64,000 nt of DNA from a virus, in the IMG/VR virus record IMGVR_UViG_3300028423_000356, positions 1 through 64,000 of that record. The stretch is one strand, 5' to 3'. Made by a program: the position numbers and the translations under genes. Position 1 is the stretch's first letter; each line of letters opens with the position of its first letter. The notes below the pieces were generated by a model that worked only from the letters and a program-made list of their open reading frames with translations, was not told the DNA's origin and ran no database searches. Below are positions 1 through 13,123 of this stretch, piece by piece.

Positions 1-16
1 GCTGGATAATATAGAA

Positions 17-250
17 TTAATCACAGATAACTCCTCCTCAATCTGTGATTAAAATGTCACACAATAAACTCCTCCTCATATTGTGTGACACCATATGACA
101 AACAATTTTACTCTCCCTTTGAATTGTTTGTCATAAAATAGGTGAAGATAGAACTCCGTTTTTAATGCTCTCCCTTAACGTTGAGTTCTCTTCATCTCAC
201 AGTGACAGGCATCTTAATATCCTCCCTTGTTAAGATGTCTGTCACTTTTT
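17..250 (+). ncRNA. Putative sRNA: five tandem hairpins with anti-SD (CUCCUCCU/CUCCCU) loops, ending in a U-tract
   Basis: Stems at 17-28/41-52, 55-66/79-90, 94-108/121-135, 141-160/177-196 and 201-217/230-246. Loops contain AACTCCTCCTCA (x2), TACTCTCCCTTT, GCTCTCCCTT and TATCCTCCCTTG. G-U pairs favour the + strand. Confidence 0.7.
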
Positions 251-267
251 ATATAAAGGATTGCGAA

Positions 268-576
268 ATGAAATTTAAAAATATAAATGATGTCCAGATT
301 GAAAATATTAAAAACACTATTAATAGACTCAACCTTGAGGAATTACAATATCTGAAATCATATATAGACTCAACCTTAAAAGATTTTAAAAATAATAAAC
401 AAGACACCATTAATTTAGGTGACACATTAAAGTTTTATGATGAAAATGATAATCTCAAAGTAGGGAAACTCATTAATAGACTCAACCTTCTCTATGTAGT
501 AGAAGATATAATGGGTAGACAATATAAGGTGCACCCTAAAGATACTCAACTTGTTAGAAATGGAAAGAGATACTAA
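268..576 (+). CDS. Hypothetical protein
   Basis: ATG 268 follows AAGGA. The ORF-track start at 181 lies inside the hairpin array. Confidence 0.7.
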   Translation: MKFKNINDVQIENIKNTINRLNLEELQYLKSYIDSTLKDFKNNKQDTINLGDTLKFYDENDNLKVGKLINRLNLLYVVEDIMGRQYKVHPKDTQLVRNGKRY

Positions 577-1040
577 TGGCAAATGTATTATTTCAAATTA
601 AGAATGATGTGACAGAAAGGCATATAATACTCAACCTTATAGCATCTGAATTGAATTCTAATAAGTATGAAACAGGGTTTTATGCTCAACCTTCTAATAA
701 TATAGAAGAGTTCATTAGAATTAACTCAACCTATACGACACCAGATATAAAGATCAACCTTGGTGCAAAAAAGAAATCTAATTCTAATGACTCAACCTTA
801 AAGAAAACTTTAAAAGAATTAGATCAACCTCCTATGGTTGAGTTCTGGTATAAAATACCCTTTAAGTTATTCAAAAAAATTATAACACACGACTTCAAAA
901 CATTCAACCTTAAGATAGGTAGAGAATTATACTATGAAGTATATAATAAAGAAAAAGTAAGATATTTGTCACATAGGTTGCTTAATAATGAACTCAACCT
1001 GGGTCCAAATTTCATACCCAAGTTTAATGGAGTTCAACCT
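328..1040 (+). repeat. Dispersed direct repeat TCAACCT (12 copies), iteron-like
   Basis: Copies at about 329, 370, 482, 631, 686, 726, 754, 792, 824, 904, 994 and 1034, read in all three codon frames. Confidence 0.85.
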
Positions 1041-1139
1041 CAACGTGTATACAAAAGACAATCAGGAAAGAATTATTTTATAGAAACTGGAAGCAACTCT
1101 TACTTAAGAAAAGAACCACAAAAATTCTGTTTTAAGTAA
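576..1139 (+). CDS. Hypothetical protein, paralogue of 22582..23097
   Basis: Shared blocks N(V/I)LF, KYxxGxY, N(I/V)EE(F/Y)xR, VE(F/I)WYKIP and N(L/I)KIGR. Confidence 0.75.
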   Translation: MANVLFQIKNDVTERHIILNLIASELNSNKYETGFYAQPSNNIEEFIRINSTYTTPDIKINLGAKKKSNSNDSTLKKTLKELDQPPMVEFWYKIPFKLFKKIITHDFKTFNLKIGRELYYEVYNKEKVRYLSHRLLNNELNLGPNFIPKFNGVQPQRVYKRQSGKNYFIETGSNSYLRKEPQKFCFK

Positions 1140-1205
1140 TGTCCCTTGTCCTAGGACTAAGGACACCAATGGGGCAAAAACATTAGCACGGACTCCCTTA
1201 TATAT

Positions 1206-1234
1206 AATATATGCTATAAGAAGTCAATAGTCAA
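1206..1234 (-). promoter_or_regulatory. Leftward sigma70-type promoter
   Basis: Minus strand TTGACT (1234-1229)-N17-TATATT (1211-1206), the same consensus as the + strand promoters. Confidence 0.7.
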
Positions 1235-1389
1235 GTGTTTTTCACATTTTTTCTAAAAATTCCTTATGTCCAATAACGATTGATTATCGGACGTGTTACA
1301 TTTTTACAACACAATTATTTTTCACAAATTTATTTTTAACTGCCACATAACTTAATTGGTAGTTATTAATATTTATTTACTCTCACCTA

Positions 1390-1418
1390 TTGACTTTTTA
1401 ACAATTACATACTATATT
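1390..1418 (+). promoter_or_regulatory. Early sigma70-type promoter
   Basis: TTGACT-N17-TATATT. Confidence 0.8.
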
Positions 1419-1449
1419 ATATGTATAGACTATTAAAAGGAGATTTGTA

Positions 1450-2082
1450 ATGTATGAATACGAATCATACCATAACTACATCAGCAGAATGTATAGAGAA
1501 TATGAAGAAGCATCTTCAGTAGAAAATCAAGACTTAAAAATTAATAATGGAGAAACAAATATGAAATATGATAATGATAAAACACAATTTGCACTCATTC
1601 CACCAGAAGCATTAGAAGAAATTGGAAGAGTGTTAACATTCGGTTCTTCTAAGTATGGACCAAATGATTGGAGACACGATGGAGACTGCACAGAATGGTC
1701 AAGAACATATTCATCCATTCAAAGACATTTAAATGCTTTCTGGAGTGGTGAAGACTTAGACCCCGAAACAGGACTTAATCACTTATCACACGCCGCAACA
1801 CAAATCATTATTCTTATGATGCACCAGAAAGATGGTAACACTCATATGGATGATAGATATGTGCCCCTTGAAGTTCCAACAGAAATTACATGTGATAATT
1901 GTGATTGTGTCACACCTTGCTTTACAGAATATTCTCTTGATGATGATTATTCTTATAGTGTTTCAGATGCTGTGGTAAATACTCCAAATGTAACATTGAA
2001 TGAATCTAATCACCATAAACACAATGATATCAGCACCATAGTTGATAATCTTAGAGAATACCTTTATAACAGGGATAGATAA
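1450..2082 (+). CDS. dATP/dGTP diphosphohydrolase domain protein (DUF5664-like)
   Basis: KYDxxK..LIPPEAL..VLTFGxxKYGPNDWR..RHLxAFWxGEDxDPETGLxHLxHA. Confidence 0.85.
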   Translation: MYEYESYHNYISRMYREYEEASSVENQDLKINNGETNMKYDNDKTQFALIPPEALEEIGRVLTFGSSKYGPNDWRHDGDCTEWSRTYSSIQRHLNAFWSGEDLDPETGLNHLSHAATQIIILMMHQKDGNTHMDDRYVPLEVPTEITCDNCDCVTPCFTEYSLDDDYSYSVSDAVVNTPNVTLNESNHHKHNDISTIVDNLREYLYNRDR

Positions 2083-2089
2083 AAACATT

Positions 2090-2122
2090 AGAGTGGCATC
2101 TTAAAAATGTCACTCTTTTATT
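2090..2122 (+). terminator. Putative intrinsic terminator
   Basis: AGAGTGGCAT...ATGTCACTCT followed by TTTATT. Confidence 0.5.
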
Positions 2123-2139
2123 ATGTAAGGAGTGTTAAT

Positions 2140-2289
2140 ATGTATAATACAATTAAATTACCACAATACAAATGGAAATGTGAATTGACTAATAATACTT
2201 TCTGGTATGTGGAAGATGGAAAGCAACCTAATATGTTCCATAGATTTATGCAGAGAATTATATTAGGATTTAAGTGGACTGAAATTTAA
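2140..2289 (+). CDS. Small hypothetical protein
   Basis: AAGGAG RBS before ATG 2140. Confidence 0.6.
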   Translation: MYNTIKLPQYKWKCELTNNTFWYVEDGKQPNMFHRFMQRIILGFKWTEI

Positions 2290-2449
2290 ATATTATATCC
2301 CCCAGCATAGGGACACTAAAGAGTCTTTAAAGTTAATCTTTAAATTATCTTCAAAGCTTTATGTATACTAATAATTATAAGAGTAATGAGCGGATATGGT
2401 AGGGGTAAAATTAAAATAATAGGCGTGTGTCATTAATACAACATAACTC

Positions 2450-2550
2450 TAAGGTGCACTGGAAAGTATTAAAATGTTTACATAGTAAGATTAATAATGG
2501 ATAATAACCTTTAAGGTGCACCATAATAGCAACACCCCCCCTAAGGTGCA
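2450..2550 (+). repeat. TAAGGTGCA x3 in an intergenic region
   Basis: Copies at 2450, 2512 and 2542; a fourth at 525. Confidence 0.7.
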
Positions 2551-2663
2551 ATTAACGAGATGATCCACGGGTTTTCGTTAAATTTTAAAAAACTGAAAAA
2601 ATTCTAAAATTACATCTTAGCACTCATATTTTTTTAAAAAAAATTTATTTTTTATTTTACCCC

Positions 2664-2692
2664 TTGAAATACTCTTATTGGCATACTATATT
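2664..2692 (+). promoter_or_regulatory. Early promoter
   Basis: TTGAAA-N17-TATATT. Confidence 0.7.
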
Positions 2693-2724
2693 GTTAATAA
2701 CAAATATGTATTGGAGACTATATT

Positions 2725-3228
2725 ATGAAAGAAGTATTATACAGTAAAGGTAAAAATGATGAGTGTTATACTCCTGCTTATGGTGTGAAACCTATATTGA
2801 AATATATTCCTAAGGATGCTATTGTATGGTGTCCCTTTGATAAGAAGCATAGTGAATTTGTGAAACAGATTAGTAATACGAATAAAGTTATTAATAGTCA
2901 TATTGATTATGGTCAGGATTTTTTTGAGTATGAACCTGATGAGTGGGATATTATAATAAGTAATCCACCCTTTACTGAAAAGAGAAAATATTTTGAAAGA
3001 GCATTATCGTTTAATAAACCATTTGCTCTTATAATGAGTAATACATGGTTAAATGATTCTGCACCTAAGAAGTTATTTAAGGATAAAGATTTACAACTAT
3101 TAATGTTTGAAAAGAGGATGATATTTGAGACACCTAATAATGAAGTGAATAATAAAATAACATTTTCGAGTAGTTACTACTGTTGGAATTTTTTACCAAA
3201 ACAAATTATAATGGAAAGTTGGATATGA
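2725..3228 (+). CDS. Small amino (m6A/m4C) DNA methyltransferase
   Basis: NDECYTP, WCPFD and IISNPPF motifs. Confidence 0.8.
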   Translation: MKEVLYSKGKNDECYTPAYGVKPILKYIPKDAIVWCPFDKKHSEFVKQISNTNKVINSHIDYGQDFFEYEPDEWDIIISNPPFTEKRKYFERALSFNKPFALIMSNTWLNDSAPKKLFKDKDLQLLMFEKRMIFETPNNEVNNKITFSSSYYCWNFLPKQIIMESWI

Positions 3229-3479
3229 TTTATAAGATAAAGAAAAAGATTAAAAGTTTATTTGATGATACTTCAAGTGAGTGTTTTACACTTGAGAAGA
3301 TGAGAATGAAACTTATTGAAGATGGATATGATGTTGAACCTATTAGTATTAACGATATTGAATGTATGTGGTTGAGAGTGAAGATACCTAATGAAGAAAA
3401 TAAAAGTATTAGAGTAACATTTGAATCATATCATGATGATTATTATATGAGAATGTTAAAAGAGATATATGGAAAGTGA
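3225..3479 (+). CDS. Hypothetical protein
   Basis: ATGA overlap with the upstream gene. Confidence 0.6.
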   Translation: MIYKIKKKIKSLFDDTSSECFTLEKMRMKLIEDGYDVEPISINDIECMWLRVKIPNEENKSIRVTFESYHDDYYMRMLKEIYGK

Positions 3480-3805
3480 AAATGGAAATGTATAATGGAT
3501 TAGTGAGAAAAGCATGTGTTGTGTGTAAAAAGGATTGGATGTGGGATGCGGAAAAAGTTGCGGATGAACCTGTCTGTCCTAATTGTATAAAAATGGAAAC
3601 ACGTTATGCTATCAGTTCTTTCGAAGAGATTTGGGTGAAAGTGTGTTATAGGTTTTTTGAAAGAAATGGGTATTATGATTGGTATGAAGTAGATATGAGA
3701 GATGCGTTTAATGAAATGATGGAAGAAAGTAATGGAAATATAAATCCAATCTGGTTAAAAGAAAGAATTAAAAAATTATATGAGAGTGTTGGAATTTATA
3801 CTTGA
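3476..3805 (+). CDS. Hypothetical Zn-finger protein
   Basis: CVVC...CPNC. Confidence 0.6.
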   Translation: MKMEMYNGLVRKACVVCKKDWMWDAEKVADEPVCPNCIKMETRYAISSFEEIWVKVCYRFFERNGYYDWYEVDMRDAFNEMMEESNGNINPIWLKERIKKLYESVGIYT

Positions 3806-3830
3806 CAAAGTGGATTTGATATACTATATT
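3802..3830 (+). promoter_or_regulatory. Early promoter
   Basis: TTGACA-N17-TATATT. Confidence 0.8.
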
Positions 3831-3844
3831 ATTATAAAGGGAGA

Positions 3845-4126
3845 ATGAATATGAAAGATACATTAACAGTTAGATATTATGCTCGTCCTGATGGTCGTAT
3901 GAGTGAAATTGAAATGAGTAACATCTTTAAAGAAGATGTGGATTTTTTTGTAAAGAATAATATAGTCGTATCAATAGAAGAATTGATGACCGGGGATATT
4001 GTGGTATATGGTTGTCCAAGATATGATGATTCTGAAGAGAGTGAAATTATAGTTTTCTCTGATAATAGAAATTGTCAAGATACTATGAAAAATCTTAGAG
4101 AAAAATGTGAAAAGGAATTTTTATGA
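3845..4126 (+). CDS. Hypothetical protein
   Basis: ORF with RBS downstream of a promoter. Confidence 0.65.
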   Translation: MNMKDTLTVRYYARPDGRMSEIEMSNIFKEDVDFFVKNNIVVSIEELMTGDIVVYGCPRYDDSEESEIIVFSDNRNCQDTMKNLREKCEKEFL

Positions 4127-4347
4127 AAACAATAATTAAAAATACTCCTGTTGATGTGGATGAAGTGAATAGGTTTCGTAAAAGAGGAACTGAAGAAGAA
4201 ATTCCTTTAATGACTGCAAAGTATAATGCTCAAGTGAGTCGTCTTCTTGATGAATTATATGTTATTCGTAATGAGACGGATGATGTGGATGAAAAAGTGG
4301 ATATGTTGATTGAAATTATGATTCGTGGCATCGAATTTAAAGATTAA
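4123..4347 (+). CDS. Hypothetical protein
   Basis: ATGA overlap. Confidence 0.6.
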   Translation: MKTIIKNTPVDVDEVNRFRKRGTEEEIPLMTAKYNAQVSRLLDELYVIRNETDDVDEKVDMLIEIMIRGIEFKD

Positions 4348-4365
4348 TAGAATGGAGATTATATT

Positions 4366-4518
4366 ATGTATTTTGATGATGAAATTATAGAAGATTTTGC
4401 ACGCATTATTGCAGCAGAAAAAATGGGATTAATAAAAGATAAAAAAGGTAAAAATTTACCTTATGAACTATGGAGTCAGTGTATTCCAGATGCTCGTAAT
4501 TTTTTAGGAATGGATTAA
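4366..4518 (+). CDS. Small hypothetical protein (50 aa, not in ORF track)
   Basis: GGAG RBS; MYFDDEIIEDFARII... Confidence 0.6.
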   Translation: MYFDDEIIEDFARIIAAEKMGLIKDKKGKNLPYELWSQCIPDARNFLGMD

Positions 4519-4520
4519 TT

Positions 4521-4658
4521 ATGGTAGATATTTTGATATGGGCTTTATTGTTATACCTAATTATAAAGGGTATCGAAATCATCGTTGATAATATCATATA
4601 CTTTACTGTAATTGCAGTAATAACAATAATAATACTAGGTGAAAAGGGAATATTATGA
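4521..4658 (+). CDS. Small membrane protein (not in ORF track)
   Basis: MVDILIWALLLYLII... is hydrophobic and its stop overlaps the next ATG. Confidence 0.5.
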   Translation: MVDILIWALLLYLIIKGIEIIVDNIIYFTVIAVITIIILGEKGIL

Positions 4659-5050
4659 ATAAGTTATTAGAAAATATAGAAGCAAAGATGACAGAGAACA
4701 GATATGTTTTCCCAAGTCCTCTTGAAGAAATAAGTTATACTGAAACATATAGTAATCAAGGTCCTATTGATATTAGTTTAAATACACTAAGAGAAATGCG
4801 CATTGAAGTTCGTATTGGTGCTTATCAAATGATTGAAGAAAAGTATATCGGAACTACTACTGGTGAATTTATTATGCAAGAGTTGAAGGAAAAAATGGGG
4901 TATGCTATTGCTGAACACATTTATGGTGATATAAGAAGAAAGTTAATAGAATTGGAATATACCACTCGTCGTGAGGGTATAAGACACAATTCAGATACTT
5001 TAAAGATTATAGATGAATTACATAAGATGGTGACATATGGTAGATACTAA
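4655..5050 (+). CDS. Hypothetical protein
   Basis: ORF in a tightly packed operon. Confidence 0.65.
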   Translation: MNKLLENIEAKMTENRYVFPSPLEEISYTETYSNQGPIDISLNTLREMRIEVRIGAYQMIEEKYIGTTTGEFIMQELKEKMGYAIAEHIYGDIRRKLIELEYTTRREGIRHNSDTLKIIDELHKMVTYGRY

Positions 5051-5074
5051 TATTTACATGTGAAAGGAAATATT

Positions 5075-5257
5075 ATGGATATAGGTAAAGCGATTGATGG
5101 TTTATTCAAAGGATTTGTGTTTGCGTTAATATCAACACTCATTCTCGCACTTTATATTTTATGGGTAACATTTTTTGAATCAAATCCTTGGGATGTTTGT
5201 GGTAAAATGAAAACAGACAGTGCAAAAGTCCAATGTATGGAGACACACTATGATTAA
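5075..5257 (+). CDS. Small membrane protein
   Basis: One transmembrane segment; AGGA RBS. Confidence 0.55.
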   Translation: MDIGKAIDGLFKGFVFALISTLILALYILWVTFFESNPWDVCGKMKTDSAKVQCMETHYD

Positions 5258-5525
5258 TGAAATAAATGTAGACGATTTTACTTATGATGTGAAAATTGTA
5301 AGTGATAAAGATAATATTAAATTTTCTTATAAAGATAAAGATGATGAATGGTATACTTTAGAGGTAACTTACACACCTGAACTTGTTAGAGATTTAAAAT
5401 CAGTGCATGGAATAAATGTTGAAGAAGAACTTATTAGCATTTTGAAAGAAAATATGAAACTTGAAATAAGTAAAAAGTATGATGGTGAATATTGGAATAA
5501 AAACAAAGGAATTTGGAATGATTAA
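5250..5525 (+). CDS. Small protein with a gp23 major-capsid-like segment
   Basis: YTPELVRDLKSVHGINVEEELISIL..EI resembles the gp23 motif YxxELAQDLxAxHGxDAxxELxxIL..EI. Confidence 0.6.
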   Translation: MINEINVDDFTYDVKIVSDKDNIKFSYKDKDDEWYTLEVTYTPELVRDLKSVHGINVEEELISILKENMKLEISKKYDGEYWNKNKGIWND

Positions 5526-5928
5526 AAAATTTATTAATAGGTTAACCAAATGTGAATGTTTGGAAGAAATGAAAAAAACACCATATGGTGAAATTAAAAT
5601 GAATAATGGTATGCTTAGTTTTATTTTTAATATTATGTGGAGTTATGAACATAGTTTGAGACAAACAGGAAGAACAACAAGACTGTGTAATGAAGCAAAG
5701 AAAAATGGTGGTGTAGTTGTTTGTCACAATCAGGGTATGGTTAAATACATACAAGATATCTATAATATAAAAGCAGTTAACTTGGATACCTATTTGAATC
5801 CAGATTATCATAGAGGTAGAGTTAAACACATTAAATATTATTTTGATAGTCCTGCTGAACAAGAGTTAATAAAAAGAAAATTGTGTGAAGTGAAAGAGAT
5901 AATGGAAGGAAATGTATATGTTAGATAA
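5518..5928 (+). CDS. Hypothetical protein with a degenerate P-loop-like motif
   Basis: RQTGRTT followed by a hydrophobic strand (VVVC). Confidence 0.55.
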   Translation: MIKKFINRLTKCECLEEMKKTPYGEIKMNNGMLSFIFNIMWSYEHSLRQTGRTTRLCNEAKKNGGVVVCHNQGMVKYIQDIYNIKAVNLDTYLNPDYHRGRVKHIKYYFDSPAEQELIKRKLCEVKEIMEGNVYVR

Positions 5929-6112
5929 AGATATTTTTTTAGATTTATTAGATATTGAAGATAGTGTCCTTGTATTGGATAATGATATGTGTTTTATAAA
6001 TTATAACTTTGATGAAGATGGTGAATGTGAATCTAAATCATTTTATTACAGTCCAAAAGATATACTATTAATTTTAGGTGAAGAATACAAAATTAAAATG
6101 AAGGATGTATAA
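5912..6112 (+). CDS. Hypothetical protein
   Basis: ORF in an operon. Confidence 0.55.
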   Translation: MYMLDKDIFLDLLDIEDSVLVLDNDMCFINYNFDEDGECESKSFYYSPKDILLILGEEYKIKMKDV

Positions 6113-6279
6113 TGATGGGATTGAATATAATACTTGTTCCTGAAGGATATATAATAGAAAATGAAATAAATGGTGTTCTACACACTGTTTAAAAAGGTAA
6201 CATCGTTCAACCAAATCATAAAGATTTATATATGGTGAAAGAAGATTATGAAATCTTAAGGAAAGAATATGGAATTTAA
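6112..6279 (+). pseudogene. Small ORF with an in-frame TAA at 6190
   Basis: The frame stays open after the stop and ends overlapping the C5 methyltransferase start. Confidence 0.4.
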
Positions 6280-7255
6280 TTTTATAGATTTGTGTGCGGG
6301 AATAGGTGGGTTTCGTATTGGTATGGAATCTATTGGTGGTAAATGTATTTTATCTGCTGACATCGATAAAAAAGTATCTGAAATGTATCATGATGTTCAT
6401 AATATAAGTGAAGATGAAGAATACATTTCAGATTTATTTGACATACCTTTAGATGGTGATTATAATATAGATGTGATTTGTGCTGGGTTTCCCTGTCAAC
6501 CATTTTCTTCTGCTGGATTAAAAAGAGGATTTGAAGATCCTCGTGGAAATGTTTTCTTTGGTATTATGAACCTGGTTAAAGCATATGAACCAAAGGTAGT
6601 ATTTCTAGAGAATGTAAAACCATTAATTAATCATGATAATGGTAACACTATGAATACAATTGTGAGTAATCTTGAAAATGAAGGATATTATGTATCTTAT
6701 AAAATACTTAACAATAATAACTTTGGTTTACCCCAAAATAGAGAAAGAGTATTCATAGTTGCATCCAAAAATAAGAAGTTTTATTTTAATAAATTGGGTT
6801 ATAACAAAACTGAACCATTAAAATCAATTCTTTTAGATGAAGAAAGAAAATATATAGATGAAAATGATTATTCAATAAAACCAAAACACTTATGGGGAAA
6901 AAATGTTAAATCGGGATTAAGATATGTTGGTCATGTGAAATTAAATAGAAAAAATCTTAGAAAGGGTTTTACAGATCCCTTAAAAACTGGTGGACACAGT
7001 GAAAATTCGAGAATATATCATATTAATGGTAATATTCATACTGCAACTGCATCTACAAAAACTTATTATGTATATGATGAAAAGGGTGTTTTCTTATTAA
7101 CACCAGAAGATATGTTAGTTTGTCAAGGATTTAAAAGAAATTTTCTTGATGGTGTTGGTAGTTGGAATTCAAAAATGAAAGCAATTGGTAATTCAGTGTG
7201 TCCAGTTATTACTACTGAAATATCAAAGGAAATGAGAAACCAAAACATATTATAA
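6269..7255 (+). CDS. DNA (cytosine-5) methyltransferase
   Basis: DLCAGIGG, GFPCQPFS, ENV, QNRER and IGNSV motifs. Confidence 0.95.
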   Translation: MEFNFIDLCAGIGGFRIGMESIGGKCILSADIDKKVSEMYHDVHNISEDEEYISDLFDIPLDGDYNIDVICAGFPCQPFSSAGLKRGFEDPRGNVFFGIMNLVKAYEPKVVFLENVKPLINHDNGNTMNTIVSNLENEGYYVSYKILNNNNFGLPQNRERVFIVASKNKKFYFNKLGYNKTEPLKSILLDEERKYIDENDYSIKPKHLWGKNVKSGLRYVGHVKLNRKNLRKGFTDPLKTGGHSENSRIYHINGNIHTATASTKTYYVYDEKGVFLLTPEDMLVCQGFKRNFLDGVGSWNSKMKAIGNSVCPVITTEISKEMRNQNIL

Positions 7256-7272
7256 TTATTATGGAGATTGAT

Positions 7273-7644
7273 ATGGAACAAGTGAATATAGAGAAAGAAA
7301 TTGAAATTAAAGAAAGTAATGCTAAAAAATTAGCACAACAATACGCCCAAGAAAGAAAGAGACTTAAAGAAGAACTTTCAGAATTACAAACAGAAGTGGA
7401 AGATTTAACACCCACAACACCAACTGGAACAATAGATTGGTATGTTAAATGGGTAAGTATGTTTCTTGCTGTTGCAGGTGTTTTTCTTATCAGTTCTAAT
7501 ATGGTGTTCTATGGACAGTTGTCTTATGTTTTGAGTTCAATTGGATGGATATTTGTTGGTGCCACTTGGGGTGATAGAGCAATTATGGTGGGTTCGAGTA
7601 TAAGTGGAACCGCAGTTATGATGAATTTAGTTCAGAGTTTATAA
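7273..7644 (+). CDS. Membrane protein (coiled coil plus about 3 TM segments)
   Basis: Hydrophobic C-terminal half; GGAG before ATG 7273. Confidence 0.65.
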   Translation: MEQVNIEKEIEIKESNAKKLAQQYAQERKRLKEELSELQTEVEDLTPTTPTGTIDWYVKWVSMFLAVAGVFLISSNMVFYGQLSYVLSSIGWIFVGATWGDRAIMVGSSISGTAVMMNLVQSL

Positions 7645-7660
7645 AAAATAGGATACACTA

Positions 7661-7689
7661 TTGACTTTCACCAAGACTGATACTATATT
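7661..7689 (+). promoter_or_regulatory. Early promoter
   Basis: TTGACT-N17-TATATT. Confidence 0.8.
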
Positions 7690-7765
7690 ATAGAGTAAGG
7701 GTAGCGGCAACTACCTTGATTGGGGACTACCATTAGATTGTCTTTGCCGAGATAACAATAGAGTA

Positions 7766-7839
7766 GATTGCTTTGTCTAGTTGGATAGGACACCCAGCGG
7801 AATGGTTGGGAGACACAGGTTCGAGTCCTGTAGCAACGT
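7766..7839 (+). tRNA. tRNA-like element (pseudo-tRNA, anticodon undetermined)
   Basis: D arm GTCT/GGAC; T arm ACAGG-TTCGAGT-CCTGT; anticodon stem CCCAG/TTGGG with an 8-nt loop; only 5 of 7 acceptor pairs; no CCA. Confidence 0.55.
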
Positions 7840-7926
7840 TGGTATCCTATGAAACGTGTAGAATATTATGAATGTAGTTGTAGAGAAGAATGAAGATGAA
7901 ACAAATACTATTGAATGGAGAAGAAA

Positions 7927-8424
7927 ATGAGTAATATGTTGAAATGGGCGGAGCAAGAACTTCGTTATGCTGGATATGATATAAATGACCCTGAAAATGG
8001 ACCTAACCGTTGGTTAGCAGAAGGAACACTTGAACTTTTAAAGGTGTTTTCAGAACAAGGTCATAGTGGTAGTTCTGCACCCTATGCAGTAGGACTTTTC
8101 GAGAAACTTGCTTTATGGAAACCTGTTACACCACTCACAGGTGAAGATAGTGAGTGGATGGAAGTTGGTGAGGACACATGGCAGAATATTCGTAACAGTG
8201 CAGTATTCAGAGGTAAAGATGGAAAAGCATATTGGATAGAAGGTAGAATTTTCTGGGAATGGTCTTCATATCCTGATATTGATGACGGTAAACCTTTTAA
8301 GTGTTATTTTACAAGTCGTAACAGTAGAGTTAACATCGATTTCCCTTGGATGCAACCAGAGAAATCAGAATATGTATTCGTTCCAAACGAAGAATTCCCA
8401 AATGAGGTATTAGACAATGAGTAA
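7927..8424 (+). CDS. Conserved phage hypothetical protein
   Basis: FSEQGHSGSSA and PLTGEDSEW motifs. Confidence 0.7.
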   Translation: MSNMLKWAEQELRYAGYDINDPENGPNRWLAEGTLELLKVFSEQGHSGSSAPYAVGLFEKLALWKPVTPLTGEDSEWMEVGEDTWQNIRNSAVFRGKDGKAYWIEGRIFWEWSSYPDIDDGKPFKCYFTSRNSRVNIDFPWMQPEKSEYVFVPNEEFPNEVLDNE

Positions 8425-8638
8425 CCCAATTTGTTATGTGATGGTAGGTTTACCTGCGACGGGTAAATCTACTTTTATTAATTCAATAATAGATGATGAC
8501 ACTTGGATTTATAGTACTGATATGTATATTGAGTCAGTTGCAGAAGGAAGAATAAAACATGTATGTAATTCAAATGATGATACACCACCAAAGAATTGTG
8601 ATGTAGGCGAAAATACATTAGATAAATTTTTCTCTTGA
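8417..8638 (+). pseudogene. Truncated P-loop kinase (AAA_33/PNK-like) joined to an unrelated tail
   Basis: YVMVGLPATGKST..IYSTD present, but the ORF is only 73 aa. Confidence 0.55.
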
Positions 8639-8663
8639 CAAAATGTAATTAACACACTATATT
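8635..8663 (+). promoter_or_regulatory. Early promoter
   Basis: TTGACA-N17-TATATT. Confidence 0.8.
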
Positions 8664-8683
8664 ATTAACATGAGGGTATTTAA

Positions 8684-9633
8684 ATGAACATTAATCTTCG
8701 TAAAGCAAAAAGATTAAAGAATGATGAGTTTTACACAAGAATGGAAGACATAGAGAATGAATTGAGTCATTATAAAGAGTGTTTCAAAGGTGAGGTTGTT
8801 TATTGTAATTGTGATAATCCCACTTGGTCAAACTTTGCTAAATATTTTGTAGATAATTTTCAGGATATGGGATTGAAGAAAGTTATTTTAACCCACTATG
8901 ATGAGAGTGGTAGTTCAAAAACTATCTATGATGGTGAATCACTCGTTACCACACCGTTAAAAAGTAACGGTGATTTCAGAAGTGAAGAATGTATAGAATT
9001 ACTAAAAGAAGCAGATATTGTTGTAACCAATCCACCTTTTTCTCTTTTTAGAGAATATATATCACAGTTAATTGATTATGATAAGAAATTTATTATATTG
9101 GGAAATAATAATGCAATAACTTATAAGGAAGTATTTTGTCAAATAAAGTCTAATAATATATGGCTTGGCGTCCAAACAAACAAAACCATGGATTTTCAGA
9201 TTCCAGAGCATTATGAAACTTGGAGTCATATTGATGAAAATGGAAATAAAATTGCGAAAGTTCCCGCAATAAGTTGGTTTACAAATCTTCCCAACAAAAA
9301 GCGTAACGAAAAAATTACCCTTTTCAATAAATATTATGGAAATGAAGATAACTATCCCAAATACGATAATTATGATGCAATTGAAGTAAGTAAAACAAAA
9401 GACATACCAAACGACTATGATGGGTATATGGCAGTTCCTATTACCTTTATGTGTAAATATAATCCAAATCAGTTTATTATTTTGGGGATAATGGATAGAT
9501 CTAATTCTTCTGGATTAAAAACCAAAGTATATAATAAAGATGATGTACCCAAGATTTAAATGCTAGGGGTGTAATTAAAATAAAAAATGAATACAAAGCA
9601 AAATATGCACGTATAATTATAAAGAGGAAATAA
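8684..9633 (+). CDS. EcoRI-family adenine methyltransferase, frameshifted near the C-terminus
   Basis: KNDEFYT, YCNCD, GDFRSxEC and VTNPPFSLFREY motifs. The ORF stops at 9559; the tail DLNARG..YARIIIKRK lies in the -1 frame to 9633. Confidence 0.85.
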
Positions 9634-10053
9634 ATGAATACAAATTATATTATGTTATTATCATCAGAAAAATCATATGAAAGAACTTCTCGTGAAACTA
9701 TCTCAAAGAAAGCACTCATTGGTTATAAAGATTGTGATGATATTGTTATAGTTAAAAATAGATTACAAGATAAGACTGGAAAAGTATCTGTTAATTATTG
9801 GAATGATTTAGTTAAAGATACAATGAAAGTTTATGGTGAAACAATTGATAGTGTTGATTGTGATTTGGAAAAATATATGCTCTTAAATTCACTTGATAAA
9901 CACGATTTAATTTTAAAGATTTTAAAACTTAATAATGAAGTTAATAGATTAAAAAAACAAAACACAGATATGGGTTGGATATTAAATCCAGACCGTATGG
10001 GTGGTCAATTTAGTGAATGGGAAACCAGTCGTCGTGGTGATGAATGGTCTTAA
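9634..10053 (+). CDS. Hypothetical protein
   Basis: ORF; C-terminal NPDRMGGQF. Confidence 0.65.
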   Translation: MNTNYIMLLSSEKSYERTSRETISKKALIGYKDCDDIVIVKNRLQDKTGKVSVNYWNDLVKDTMKVYGETIDSVDCDLEKYMLLNSLDKHDLILKILKLNNEVNRLKKQNTDMGWILNPDRMGGQFSEWETSRRGDEWS

Positions 10054-10080
10054 TAACTGATAAAAAATGGAGAATATATT

Positions 10081-10350
10081 ATGAATTACTATGATTGTTT
10101 TGTGAAAAGTATTATAAATGAATTAGGAAGATTAGAAGATACATATCCTGATGATGTGTATAATGTTGTGACAGATAATATGCCACACGATACATTTGCT
10201 ATTATGACTTTATTAGACCATTCTAATGCCTTTGAAGGTAGAGTTATGGAAGAATATGTTGGTCTAAGTTTAAGTGAAATGATGTATAAAATACTATTTG
10301 AAATTACTATGACAGATGTTCTATTTAAGGTTAATGAGAAAAACCCATAA
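10081..10350 (+). CDS. Hypothetical protein
   Basis: GGAG RBS. Confidence 0.65.
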   Translation: MNYYDCFVKSIINELGRLEDTYPDDVYNVVTDNMPHDTFAIMTLLDHSNAFEGRVMEEYVGLSLSEMMYKILFEITMTDVLFKVNEKNP

Positions 10351-10385
10351 ATAGTTATAAAAACTATTGTAGGAGATATATTAAA

Positions 10386-11786
10386 ATGGGGTATTTTAAA
10401 AAATCAGACTTAGTTAAAGAAAAGTATATTATGAAAATAATATATGACATTGAAAATGGTAAATTGATTAAAGTTAAGATAAACAATAAAATTAAATCCG
10501 TAAAATTTGAAAATAATGATTTTATTAAAAACACACTTAAACCCATTCAGAACAATTCTTCAAAATACTATAAGAAACTATATTCTAATGATAAACATAA
10601 ATATGTATTTAAAACAACTGACGGTGATTTAATAAGATTTATTGATATCGAAAAAACACAATATTCACAAATTAATAAAAAAATAAATACAAATACATTG
10701 GGTTCTAAATTAACAAATGCTATTGAATTAGCAACAATAGAATCTTTATATAATGATATCAATAGTCCTGAAGATACTAAACAAAAATTATTTATTAATG
10801 GAACCATAAAATTTGATAATTGGGCACAAACATTCAAAAATACTAAAATTATTTTGAAAAAGATAATAAAAGATGATATTAAAAAATATAAAATTATACA
10901 TAGTGCCACAGATAATTCAGAATTTAGTAAAATAATTCGTAAATTTTTATCAAAAATGAATATTTCAAAACAGGACAATTGGAATACATCAGATATTTAT
11001 ATTATTAAAAAAACATCATATAAAAATATAAAAAAACAATTAAAGATAATAATTGATGATAATAATGTGAATAATATTGTTAATAATATGAATAATTATA
11101 TTTATAATTTATTCAAAAATGATGAATTATATCCAATTTCATTAAAACAGATAACAGATGATGGAAAATATGAATATAATAATATACCAAATAATAACCC
11201 AAATTACACAAATTATAATCTAGAAAAAATTAATATATCTTTATTTAATGATACGAATGAAATAGGGTTAATATTAATTAGAGATGATGATAATAACACA
11301 ATTCCATTACAGATAAGGGGGTATCCTCATGGATATAATATTTCACAATTAGAAATTGGTAGTTATCAAGGAGGAAGAGTTGGTAAAATACCAATAAAAA
11401 TTGTAGATGAAGTTTTTAAACATCACGAACATGATAGGATTTCAAGTATAAAATATTTTGGTAAACCCCCTAATTATTTTAGTGAATTTAATGAACAAAA
11501 AATTAAAGACGTTGTTAATTGGTATAACTTTACTATAAAAAATATTAATTATGTTAAAAACTTGGATGATGTGAATAATTTAACCGTTGATTTTTTGTCA
11601 GACTATATTAATGTCATAAAAAAAGATTTAAGGAGTGTTGAAAAAATGTGTCATAAAATTCAAGGATTGAATATTGTATATTTTTTATTAAAAAATGTCG
11701 ATAACATATCAAACATTATTAATACATTTATTAACGCTGCAAAGAAAATTGATACTTCTAATAGTTTTTTTATTAAAATATATTAA
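10386..11786 (+). CDS. Putative PD-(D/E)XK-like nuclease
   Basis: DNWNTSDIY...YPISLKQ resembles DxWNPxDIW...SLK proteins of T4-like phages; very AT-rich. Confidence 0.5.
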   Translation: MGYFKKSDLVKEKYIMKIIYDIENGKLIKVKINNKIKSVKFENNDFIKNTLKPIQNNSSKYYKKLYSNDKHKYVFKTTDGDLIRFIDIEKTQYSQINKKINTNTLGSKLTNAIELATIESLYNDINSPEDTKQKLFINGTIKFDNWAQTFKNTKIILKKIIKDDIKKYKIIHSATDNSEFSKIIRKFLSKMNISKQDNWNTSDIYIIKKTSYKNIKKQLKIIIDDNNVNNIVNNMNNYIYNLFKNDELYPISLKQITDDGKYEYNNIPNNNPNYTNYNLEKINISLFNDTNEIGLILIRDDDNNTIPLQIRGYPHGYNISQLEIGSYQGGRVGKIPIKIVDEVFKHHEHDRISSIKYFGKPPNYFSEFNEQKIKDVVNWYNFTIKNINYVKNLDDVNNLTVDFLSDYINVIKKDLRSVEKMCHKIQGLNIVYFLLKNVDNISNIINTFINAAKKIDTSNSFFIKIY

Positions 11787-11791
11787 AACAC

Positions 11792-11820
11792 TTGACAAAC
11801 TAATATCCATATACTATATT
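11792..11820 (+). promoter_or_regulatory. Early promoter
   Basis: TTGACA-N17-TATATT. Confidence 0.8.
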
Positions 11821-11849
11821 ATATAATAAGACAATAAAAGGTGAACTAA

Positions 11850-12692
11850 ATGATATTAATTGATTATAATGCTATTGCTATTAGTAATGTATTAACACAA
11901 AAAGTGGAATTAGATGAAAATCTTATTCGACACATGATATTAAATTCTATTAGAATATATCGTAAAAAATATAAAAATGAATTTGGTGAGATTGTTATAA
12001 CAAATGATGGTTCAAATAATTGGAGAAGAGAAGTTTTTCCCCAATATAAGTTCAAAAGAAAATCATCAAGAGATGACTCTAAAATAGACTGGGATGAACT
12101 ATTTCGTATCACAAACTTAGTATTTGATGAACTTGTTGAGTATTTTCCATATAAAGTTATAAAACACGATAGATGTGAGGCAGATGATGTTATTGCAACT
12201 TTGTGTGAATACACACAAGAGTTTGGAAATTGGGAGAAAACATTAATAGTTTCTTCTGATAAAGATTTTATACAACTACAAAAGTATGATAATGTATATC
12301 AGTATTCACCAATGAATAAAAGAATGATAAAAGAAAAAAACCCAAGATTACAATTAATGGAACTTATTTTGGGTGGTGACAGTTCTGATGGTGTTCCAAA
12401 TGTGTTATCAAATGATAATGTTTTTGTTGAAGGTATAAGACAGACACCTCTTTCGAAAAAGAAAAAGGAAACTCTTATACAAGATCAGGAATCACTTGGA
12501 GATGAAATATACAGGAATTTTCAAAGAAACAAATTACTTATTGATTTGTCATCTACTCCAGAAAAGTTCAAAAAAGAAATAATAAATAACTATAATTCAC
12601 AAGATAAAAGTGAAAATAAGAAAAAGGTTATGAATTTTTTAATAAATAAAAAATGTAGATTATTACTAGAAGAAACAGGAGATTTTTTATAA
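11850..12692 (+). CDS. rnh: T4-type RNase H (5'-3' exonuclease)
   Basis: MILID, WRxxxFPxYK, EADD, SSDKDF and GDSSDGVPN motifs. Confidence 0.95.
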   Translation: MILIDYNAIAISNVLTQKVELDENLIRHMILNSIRIYRKKYKNEFGEIVITNDGSNNWRREVFPQYKFKRKSSRDDSKIDWDELFRITNLVFDELVEYFPYKVIKHDRCEADDVIATLCEYTQEFGNWEKTLIVSSDKDFIQLQKYDNVYQYSPMNKRMIKEKNPRLQLMELILGGDSSDGVPNVLSNDNVFVEGIRQTPLSKKKKETLIQDQESLGDEIYRNFQRNKLLIDLSSTPEKFKKEIINNYNSQDKSENKKKVMNFLINKKCRLLLEETGDFL

Positions 12693-13123
12693 TGGCTATT
12701 AAACATACATTAAATATCTACGAAGTTTTAGAAAGAGTTGCAAACACTAAAACACGTGATGCGAAAGTTGAAGTTCTAAGAGAACATGAATCAGTTGCAT
12801 TGAAAGACATTTTACGATGTGCTTTTGATGATGTAGTTCAGTTCACTATTCCAAAAGGCACACCACCTTATACACCTGCTGATGAAAGTTCAGTTCCAGC
12901 AAACCTATTAACAAAAAATAAACAATTGACATATTTTGTTAAGGGTGGTCAGGGGGATAAACTACCACAACATAGAAGAGAGAAAATCTTTATTGATTTG
13001 TTGGAAACAATTCACCCTAAGGATGCTGAAATTCTTCTTCTTGTAAAAGATAAGAATCAACCAGCAAAATCAGTTACTAAAAAATTGGTTCAAAAAGCGT
13101 TTCCAAACTTAATCAGAAAATAA
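12692..13123 (+). CDS. Conserved T4-like phage protein downstream of rnh
   Basis: PxGxPPY..RRExIFIxLLExIHPxDA; usual position after rnh. Confidence 0.75.
   Translation: MAIKHTLNIYEVLERVANTKTRDAKVEVLREHESVALKDILRCAFDDVVQFTIPKGTPPYTPADESSVPANLLTKNKQLTYFVKGGQGDKLPQHRREKIFIDLLETIHPKDAEILLLVKDKNQPAKSVTKKLVQKAFPNLIRK

Follow-up and report, generated by a model that had tools for sequence, protein, structure and literature searches.

The first 250 nucleotides (nt) of the window analysed here, a 64-kb stretch covering positions 1 to 64,000 of virus record IMGVR_UViG_3300028423_000356, hold an array of five consecutive hairpins with C/U-rich loops that resemble the anti-Shine-Dalgarno (anti-SD) end of 16S rRNA. 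The best available reading, which we put forward tentatively, is that the array is a multivalent anti-SD RNA. The record, of which the window is the first 64 kb, is linear, 135.5 kb long (135502 nt), with 29.9% G+C and an IMG/VR completeness estimate of 79%. It belongs to a T4-like myovirus, as the matches to baseplate, sheath and large terminase families indicate. Folding of positions 1-300 with RNAfold resolves window positions 17-246 into five + strand hairpins separated by 2-4 nt:

17-52, + strand: hairpin H1, a perfect 12-base-pair (bp) stem with the 12-nt loop AACUCCUCCUCA, loop unpaired probability 1.00
55-90, + strand: hairpin H2, a perfect 12-bp stem with the same loop as H1, AACUCCUCCUCA
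94-135, + strand: hairpin H3, a 15-bp stem with one U-G closing pair and the loop UACUCUCCCUUU
140-197, + strand: hairpin H4, 19 pairs in three blocks set off by a 2-nt interior loop and then a 2-nt bulge, with the 16-nt loop UUUAAUGCUCUCCCUU, which ends in GCUCUCCCUU
201-246, or to 250 with the U-run, + strand: hairpin H5, a 19-bp stem with an internal G-U pair and the 8-nt loop UCCUCCCU, forming a terminator-like 3' end

The structure is real and unusual, and it is almost certainly under selection. The minimum free energy of the + strand is -102.1 kcal/mol, versus -47.1 +/- 4.4 kcal/mol in 200 dinucleotide shuffles (z -12.5), none of which folded as well; the - strand of the same interval reaches -88.8 kcal/mol (z -6.0). 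The loops of H1-H4 are open, with mean unpaired probabilities of 0.97-1.00, and that of H5 has a value of 0.67. Thus, the original prediction of five adjacent hairpins with C/U-rich loops at the start of the window is confirmed. Its measurements need adjusting: the stems span 12-19 bp rather than 12-17 bp, and three loops rather than four are exactly 12 nt long, a fourth being obtained only if H5 is drawn open, with 17 bp and the 12-nt loop UAUCCUCCCUUG. All five loops contain CUCC or UCCC. The heptamer CTCCTCC occurs in the whole record only at positions 31 and 69, that is, in H1 and H2. Perfect stems of at least 10 bp number 13 in 135.5 kb, and three of these are H1-H3. When G-U pairs are allowed, the + strand of the record has 171 hairpins of at least 10 bp, among which five carry CTCC, TCCC or CCTC in the loop, four of them being H1, H2, H3 and H5. 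No second array of a similar kind is present elsewhere in the 135.5-kb record. The stretch is non-coding, with no open reading frame (ORF) of at least 50 amino acids covering positions 1-180; a small peptide across H2-H3 was considered and rejected, as it would have 14 codons and no ribosome site.

The evolutionary evidence comes from comparison among the hairpins inside this one array. With H1, H2, H3 and H5 superimposed on their loops, each of the 48 stem cells holds a standard pair, and every one of the 12 stem positions has changed on both sides. In this register, arms of different units share 2-5 of 12 bases and loops 5-12 of 12, in agreement with the earlier description of the stems as unrelated in sequence. 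That description does not extend to comparisons offset by 1-2 nt, where each arm of H2 agrees with that of H3 at 9 of 12 bases and H3 agrees with H5 at 9 of 15. The differences within both pairs are matched in the opposite arm, and H5 has G-U where H3 has A-U. Since these offset identities come with pairing kept, the units look like diverged tandem duplicates that retained pairing and pyrimidine loops, which is the simplest history. A neutral process, hairpin-templated correction of palindromes, may also be the cause. Alignment of the hairpins with MAFFT did not reach the structural register, and a covariance model built from H1 and H2 (R1) was biased to the stems of these two, picking up H3 and H5 weakly and on both strands.

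Several features point to the strand that would be transcribed. On the + strand, H3 and H4 each contain one G-U pair and H5 two, and the U-run after the last hairpin covers T246-T250, with its first T still paired; both features had been noticed in the original prediction and hold as described. The four + strand G-U pairs become A-C mismatches on the - strand, where the only G-U pair is a terminal one in H2. H3, H4 and H5 gain 2.2, 3.8 and 8.7 kcal/mol on the + strand (H4, -18.2 versus -14.4 kcal/mol; H5, -28.2 versus -19.5 kcal/mol); the - strand is better by 0.4 kcal/mol for H1 and 2.4 kcal/mol for H2. H5 has the form of an intrinsic terminator, a G+C-containing stem followed by a T-run, with 19 pairs, six of them G-C, and the tail TTTTATATAA; it is listed by the terminator scan and is the only hairpin of the array that bears a U-run. 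No T-run follows H1 on the - strand when the sequence is read in that direction. Because of the G-U pairs, the energies of H3-H5 and the U-run, a + strand RNA is favoured. The array is also co-oriented with most genes of the record, 161 of the 178 called ones lying on the + strand (the calls are crude, taking the first ATG of long ORFs). One further element may belong to its 5' side:

5-10, + strand: possible -10-like hexamer GATAAT, 6-7 nt before H1, picked out by reading the sequence

Downstream, the terminator ends 22 nt before ORF1, the first of two overlapping genes, and the promoter scan lists nothing between H5 and ORF1. Since the terminator lies upstream with no intervening promoter, ORF1 and ORF2 would be reached by read-through. 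The array could thus serve as a leader and, in addition, be set free as a stable RNA.

Comparison with known RNA families brings out a resemblance of design. The Rfam family ar14 (RF02344) matches in positions 1-1500 with 43.0 bits (E 3.1e-6), short of its gathering cut-off of 58.8; over the whole record the same model gives one match, of 38.2 bits. No other Rfam family matches positions 1-1500 with E < 1, and no family reaches gathering level in the window. The ar14 model aligns H1-H3 end to end. NfeR1 and CcsR are described as hairpins with variable stems and redundant anti-SD loop motifs acting on ribosome-binding sites; cuckoo RNAs have two or three hairpins with an identical CCUCCUCCC motif unpaired in each, and can derive from the 5' or 3' untranslated region of a small protein gene (PMC10746234, PMC8034643). 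The array shares with these alphaproteobacterial RNAs (cuckoo/alpha-r14: NfeR1, CcsR1-4) the tandem hairpins, the differing stems and an anti-SD motif in each loop; it differs in having five hairpins, A+U-rich stems and other loop motifs, and in being phage-borne. The CCUCCUCCC motif is absent from its loops, which instead display CUCCUCCUC twice (H1, H2), CUCUCCC twice and CCUCCC once. There is also no DUF1127 neighbour, ORF1 and ORF2 having no Pfam family at E up to 1 save a chance K-box match. Membership in ar14/cuckoo was therefore rejected, given the sub-cut-off score, the absence of CCUCCUCCC and the lack of a DUF1127 neighbour in this T4-like phage replicon, and the match is taken here as likeness of architecture, not membership. 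Thus, of the proposed cuckoo/CcsR/NfeR1-like nature, the tandem hairpins, variable stems, anti-SD-like loops and sole significant Rfam match remain, and the family assignment does not.

A second likeness is found in low-G+C bacteria. LhrC carries CUCCC...UUUU motifs at three redundant sites, including the terminator loop, and blocks SD sequences; LhrC1-5 of Listeria are grouped there among UCCC-motif small RNAs (sRNAs), with RNAIII, RsaE and SprD also named (PMC4132741). The loops of H3-H5 likewise consist of CUCCC followed by U's, with H5 providing the terminator loop, a correspondence of motif and not of homology. The array has five sites per molecule rather than three, comes from a phage and not a chromosome, differs in the motif of H1 and H2, and shows no sequence or Rfam relationship to LhrC. 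Families of the CsrB/RsmZ type give no Rfam match at E up to 10, and GGA loops are present on the minus strand only, where H3-H5 fold worse. Among the papers listed by one literature search, judged by their titles and abstract openings, we found no multi-hairpin anti-SD RNA of a phage.

The array lies in a lineage-specific accessory island that is split between the two ends of the record. Record gene 127603-128010 encodes a SegE-type GIY-YIG homing endonuclease and lies at the island border; its homologue in the relatives G002, G003 and G004 abuts homologues of window genes 11850-13123. From this synteny, record positions 128011-135502, a gap and window positions 1-11849 form one island, so that the two contig ends are map neighbours; the record may therefore be nearer complete than the 79% estimate. 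The island runs from small minus-strand genes through an N6 methylase, a type I specificity subunit and a truncated ORF at the very end to the array, ORF1, ORF2 and several methyltransferases. The array thus follows restriction-modification genes (hsdM, hsdS, orf82 and the truncated ORF) across the gap. The type I methylase and specificity subunit, at record 131776-135067, are matched with 137 and 79.5 bits, and the cluster at record 128233-135067 includes seven small minus-strand genes, one of which encodes a WYL_2 Sm-like protein (130350-130586).

Ribosome sites complementary to the loops are concentrated in the same island. A Shine-Dalgarno core is found in 104 of the 178 start regions, with the consensus AAAGGAGA. 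The mean duplex energy of loops with start regions is -5.6 to -6.3 kcal/mol, versus -3.4 to -4.8 kcal/mol in intragenic control windows, an advantage that would be expected for any anti-SD-like loop. More specific are the GGGAG/GGAGG sites, which precede 11 of the 178 genes overall but 8 of the 12 at record 128-135.5 kb versus 3 of the 166 elsewhere (Fisher p 3.6e-9). GGGAG-type sites are exactly complementary to the loop motifs CUCUCCCUU and CCUCCCUU of H3-H5. Five start regions have at least 8 contiguous nt complementary to a loop, and all five belong to island genes, the island comprising 35 of the 178. Perfect 9-nt complements of loop H3 (AAAGGGAGA) precede the methylase gene (record 131776), gene 128233(-) (near 128448) and the window gene called at 3845; 8-nt complements precede 130063(-) and 128615(-). 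The copy inside the window is:

3836-3844, + strand: ribosome site AAAGGGAGA of an early island gene, a 9-nt complement of loop H3

The gene called at 3845 probably starts at its second ATG, 3851, with the GGGAG core then ending 7 nt rather than 1 nt before the start.

Read as a multivalent anti-SD RNA, positions 17-250 would be transcribed from the + strand into a non-coding RNA that is structured, measures at least about 235 nt and ends at the H5 terminator; this RNA could be a free-standing sRNA or a leader or trailer piece of an early transcript of the island. Its five single-stranded C/U-rich loops would imitate the anti-SD end of 16S rRNA, pair with G-rich ribosome-binding sites and block binding of the 30S subunit, at several sites at once. 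The best candidate targets are the GGGAG-type sites of the island, namely, those of the minus-strand small genes at record 128.2-130.6 kb, the type I methylase and the window 3845 gene. The phage offers no long partner to H1 and H2 (CUCCUCCUC), which would need to act on GGAGG sites of the host. The architecture, exposed loops and strand all agree with this reading; the ar14/cuckoo assignment that originally accompanied it is the part that we set aside.

A number of points weigh against it. Transcription of the array, pairing in vivo and repression are steps that we infer, and the contig begins 16 nt before H1, which places the 5' end and the -35 position off the contig. The H5 loop is partly closed, and GGAGGAG, the long partner of H1 and H2, occurs zero times in the phage. 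With a strong terminator 22 nt upstream of ORF1, the array would suit the role of a leader or attenuator as well as that of a free sRNA. The target statistics rest on crude gene and start calls, the start at 3845 being probably 6 nt early; matches of 8-9 nt are short, and complementarity to SD sites is expected of every C/U-rich loop. A foreign origin of the island could by itself explain both its G-rich sites and the C-rich loops. Finally, no homologous array was found in IMG/VR, JGI metagenomes, GTDB genomes, GenBank phages or six related genomes.

For IMG/VR, the searches used four patterns of loops or hairpins, of which one was also applied to JGI metagenomes; a fifth pattern, for a pair of identical loops, was run on GTDB, with each species represented by one genome. 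The loop-pair pattern matched 58 stretches of IMG/VR (59 matches); in three of them one loop was flanked by a stem of 6 bp or more, and a hairpin array was seen in none. The H1/H2 hairpin pattern gave nothing in IMG/VR and two matches in JGI metagenomes, neither an array by eye, their only flanking motif being the 4-bp CACA/TGTG that the pattern itself fixes. The identical-loop pair was found in 11 stretches of GTDB genomes, all tandem direct repeats or coding-like and none a hairpin. The pair of H3 and H4 loops matched at least 117 loci of IMG/VR (at least 162 matches), ten with both stems of at least 5 bp (the longest 8 bp), and none is array-like among the matches listed. In the genomes of relatives, the ar14 model matched none of the five large ones and not Phage C48C1, and a hairpin scan of the five revealed no adjacent C/U-loop hairpins. 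Neighbouring genes did not lead to a second array either: the ORF at 1450-2082 led to two loci, both lacking one, and searches with ORF2 (IMG/VR, JGI metagenomes, GenBank phages) and ORF1 (IMG/VR, GenBank phages) returned no encoding locus. Absence of the array from the relatives is uninformative about its function because the whole island is missing there.

A different element came to light in related phages. Nine related IMG/VR contigs carry a conserved long hairpin with a 17-21-nt pyrimidine loop, AUCUCUCUCCUCUCUC, in three stem versions, located 0-150 nt upstream of tRNA-Arg(tct) and on the same strand as the tRNA gene in all nine:

G002 80435-80485 (L207) and G003 123713-123758 (L220), and contigs L196, L200, L206, L210, L218, L230 and L234, strand of the tRNA gene: tRNA-Arg hairpin

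This hairpin may be a structured RNA that is freed together with the tRNA precursor, and one of its stem versions overlaps a possible frame for a small hydrophobic membrane peptide. The long stem, pyrimidine loop and varying stems recall the array, from which it differs in being a single hairpin with another loop sequence. Homology between the two was rejected since the tRNA-Arg hairpin occupies a different genome slot, the syntenic position here being at about 17.5-22.3 kb.

The genes and repeats adjoining the array bear on the alternatives:

268-576, + strand: ORF1, 102 amino acids, SD AAAGGA at 256-261, a conserved small protein of no known family
576-1139, + strand: ORF2, 187 amino acids, start overlapping the ORF1 stop, conserved, no known family
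about 328-1040, + strand: twelve co-oriented TCAACCT repeats, also CUCAACCUU, inside ORF1 and ORF2

ORF1 has one homologue at 74% identity, on a 924-bp contig, whose N-terminus agrees with the start at 268; ORF2 has a homologue at 44%, and the protein collections contain a handful at 31-44%. Proteins identical to ORF1 and ORF2 are encoded on three contigs, two of them in addition to the present one. Judging by these homologues, both are real, rare genes. Neither Pfam nor PHROGs returned anything for ORF1 or ORF2, and their AlphaFold models (predicted local distance difference test (pLDDT) 46 and 45.5) are too poor for a fold search. Residues 34-102 of an Atlas model of ORF1 (pLDDT 0.71) can be aligned with the PSHCP cluster (template modelling (TM) scores 0.57/0.74), and the PSHCP structure is, by its title, a Tudor domain with RNA-binding function. 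We treat a predicted SH3/Tudor-like C-terminal half of ORF1 as a lead only. For ORF2, Atlas gave nothing usable (scores 0.82, model pLDDT 0.37). ORF2 also has a 15-residue insertion relative to its homologues, which carries two of the repeats. Four further TCAACCT repeats lie at the right contig end (record G000 135365-135401), in an intergenic tandem of two GGTTCAACCTCAACCTT units. On the - strand, a promoter-like site, TTGACT-N17-TATATT (window 1206-1234, 10 of 12 matches), faces the repeats and the array, and an inverted near-copy of the TCAACCT repeat lies within a terminator-like hairpin at 841-824.

A first alternative, which we consider unlikely, takes the pyrimidine loops as a sponge or landing pad for a C/U-reading protein, perhaps together with the twelve CUCAACCU(U) repeats in the ORF1/ORF2 mRNA. 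The protein could be ORF1, the WYL_2 Sm-like protein or a host binder of pyrimidine tracts or of the 16S 3' tail, such as Rho, S1 or Era. The skeleton (A/G)CTCNNCCT(T) is common to the TCAACCT repeats and the loops of H1-H4, which suggests that both are possibly read by the same factor. On the + strand of the record, CTCNNCCT occurs 19 times: four times in H1-H4, eight in the repeats at 328-993, twice at the right end and only five times elsewhere, so that 12 of the 19 copies lie in the first 1.2 kb and 14 at the two contig ends. When 270,978 positions are scored with a weight matrix derived from the 16 repeat copies, H1 comes 83rd, H2 108th and H4 114th, but H3 only 560th and H5 3018th, and the likeness is in part compositional, both motifs being G-free. 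Candidate protein partners are close at hand, with ORF1 directly downstream and its Atlas model aligned with the PSHCP cluster, and with the WYL_2 Sm-like protein encoded in the island; cuckoo RNAs, too, have a small RNA-binding partner, CcaF1 (PMC8034643). The AlphaFold models of ORF1 and ORF2 are, however, poor, and Pfam and PHROGs are silent on both.

Rather improbable, in our estimate, is a passive structure whose loop sequence would have no job of its own. It could be an insulator that closes the upstream operon, a leader that attenuates ORF1/ORF2, a compound terminator or a protector of the 3' end. The terminator-like H5, the restriction-modification genes that the array follows once the contig ends are taken as map neighbours, and ORF1 located 22 nt after H5 with no promoter between would all suit such a role. 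Yet a U-run is present at H5 only. In a genome with 30% G+C, moreover, all five loops keep CUCC or UCCC and the stems have drifted freely, the opposite of a purely structural need.

It is very unlikely that the array acts at the DNA level, with hairpins extruded or formed on single-stranded + strand DNA for replication, recombination or a mobile element, for instance as an origin with iteron-like TCAACCT repeats. The 12 co-oriented repeats in the adjoining genes, the SegE-type homing endonuclease gene at the island border and the position of the array at an assembly break invite this idea. However, the contig end does not coincide with an end of the genome, as the island synteny reveals, and no fixed end would be expected in T4-like phages, whose genomes are circularly permuted. 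Dimeric binders keep their half-sites and vary the spacer, whereas the array shows the reverse, and G-U (G-T) pairs and a U-run make sense for RNA. CRP-like or other dimer-binding sites across the hairpin junctions were tried and rejected for misfitting spacing and symmetry.

Least likely of all is a minus-strand RNA running from the promoter-like site at 1234-1206 antisense through ORF2 and ORF1, with GGAG/GGA loops (GAGGAGGAG, GGGAGAG and GGGAGGA) acting either as a sponge of the CsrA type or as a decoy for a nuclease that cuts at SD sites: the site is listed with 10 of 12 matches and H1 and H2 fold slightly better on this strand (-13.1 versus -12.7 and -16.8 versus -14.4 kcal/mol), but H3-H5 lose 2.2 to 8.7 kcal/mol with four G-U pairs turned into A-C mismatches, no T-run follows H1, the terminator-like site at 841-824 intervenes, promoter-like sites number 25 versus 18.5 +/- 4.5 expected by chance and no CsrB/RsmZ-type family matches in Rfam at E up to 10, so that this sponge, already named as an alternative in the original prediction, is weakened by the G-U pairs, the H3-H5 energies and the U-run without being dropped.

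The phage itself is related to uncultured aquatic viruses. Its large terminase is 68.6% identical to that of Phage C48C1 (Kyanoviridae), on which we found no literature, and about 70% identical to those of many uncultured aquatic contigs. Outside the window, the record encodes 14 tRNAs in five groups (G000 91710-97701) and a two-piece transfer-messenger RNA (tmRNA; G000 110377-110793), which matches Rfam alpha_tmRNA with 115.6 bits and has the tag ANTNAAPEMAFAA according to ARAGORN. Permuted tmRNAs are also present in the relatives G001-G003. Because the phage tmRNA is of the two-piece alpha type, the host may be an alphaproteobacterium. Alpha-type tmRNAs are known in marine myophages of SAR11 and OM43, and the OM43 case indicates that tmRNA type leaves the host class unfixed (PMC9004378). 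When the tmRNA was compared by BLAST with 401 alphaproteobacterial genomes, 178 gave a match, but only in a conserved stretch of mostly 30-50 nt, so that no host could be assigned.

Bacterial chromosomes are known to encode anti-SD RNAs with several hairpins (cuckoo/NfeR1, LhrC). To our knowledge, none has been established in a lytic T4-like phage, and we know of no described case with five heads. New here are the array within a lineage-specific island, the cluster of GGGAG sites and the loop complements of at least 8 nt, which are confined to island genes. In a more far-reaching version of the multivalent anti-SD reading, one that we regard as quite improbable, the array would be the five-headed RNA controller of a self-contained island, possibly acting with the ORF1 protein, and would gate island genes through their GGGAG sites, thus setting when or whether the type I restriction-modification system is made. 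If the anti-SD reading is true, the phage would carry its own translational brake, and the small, concrete set of targets, namely, the GGGAG island genes and the type I methylase, makes the idea experimentally approachable.

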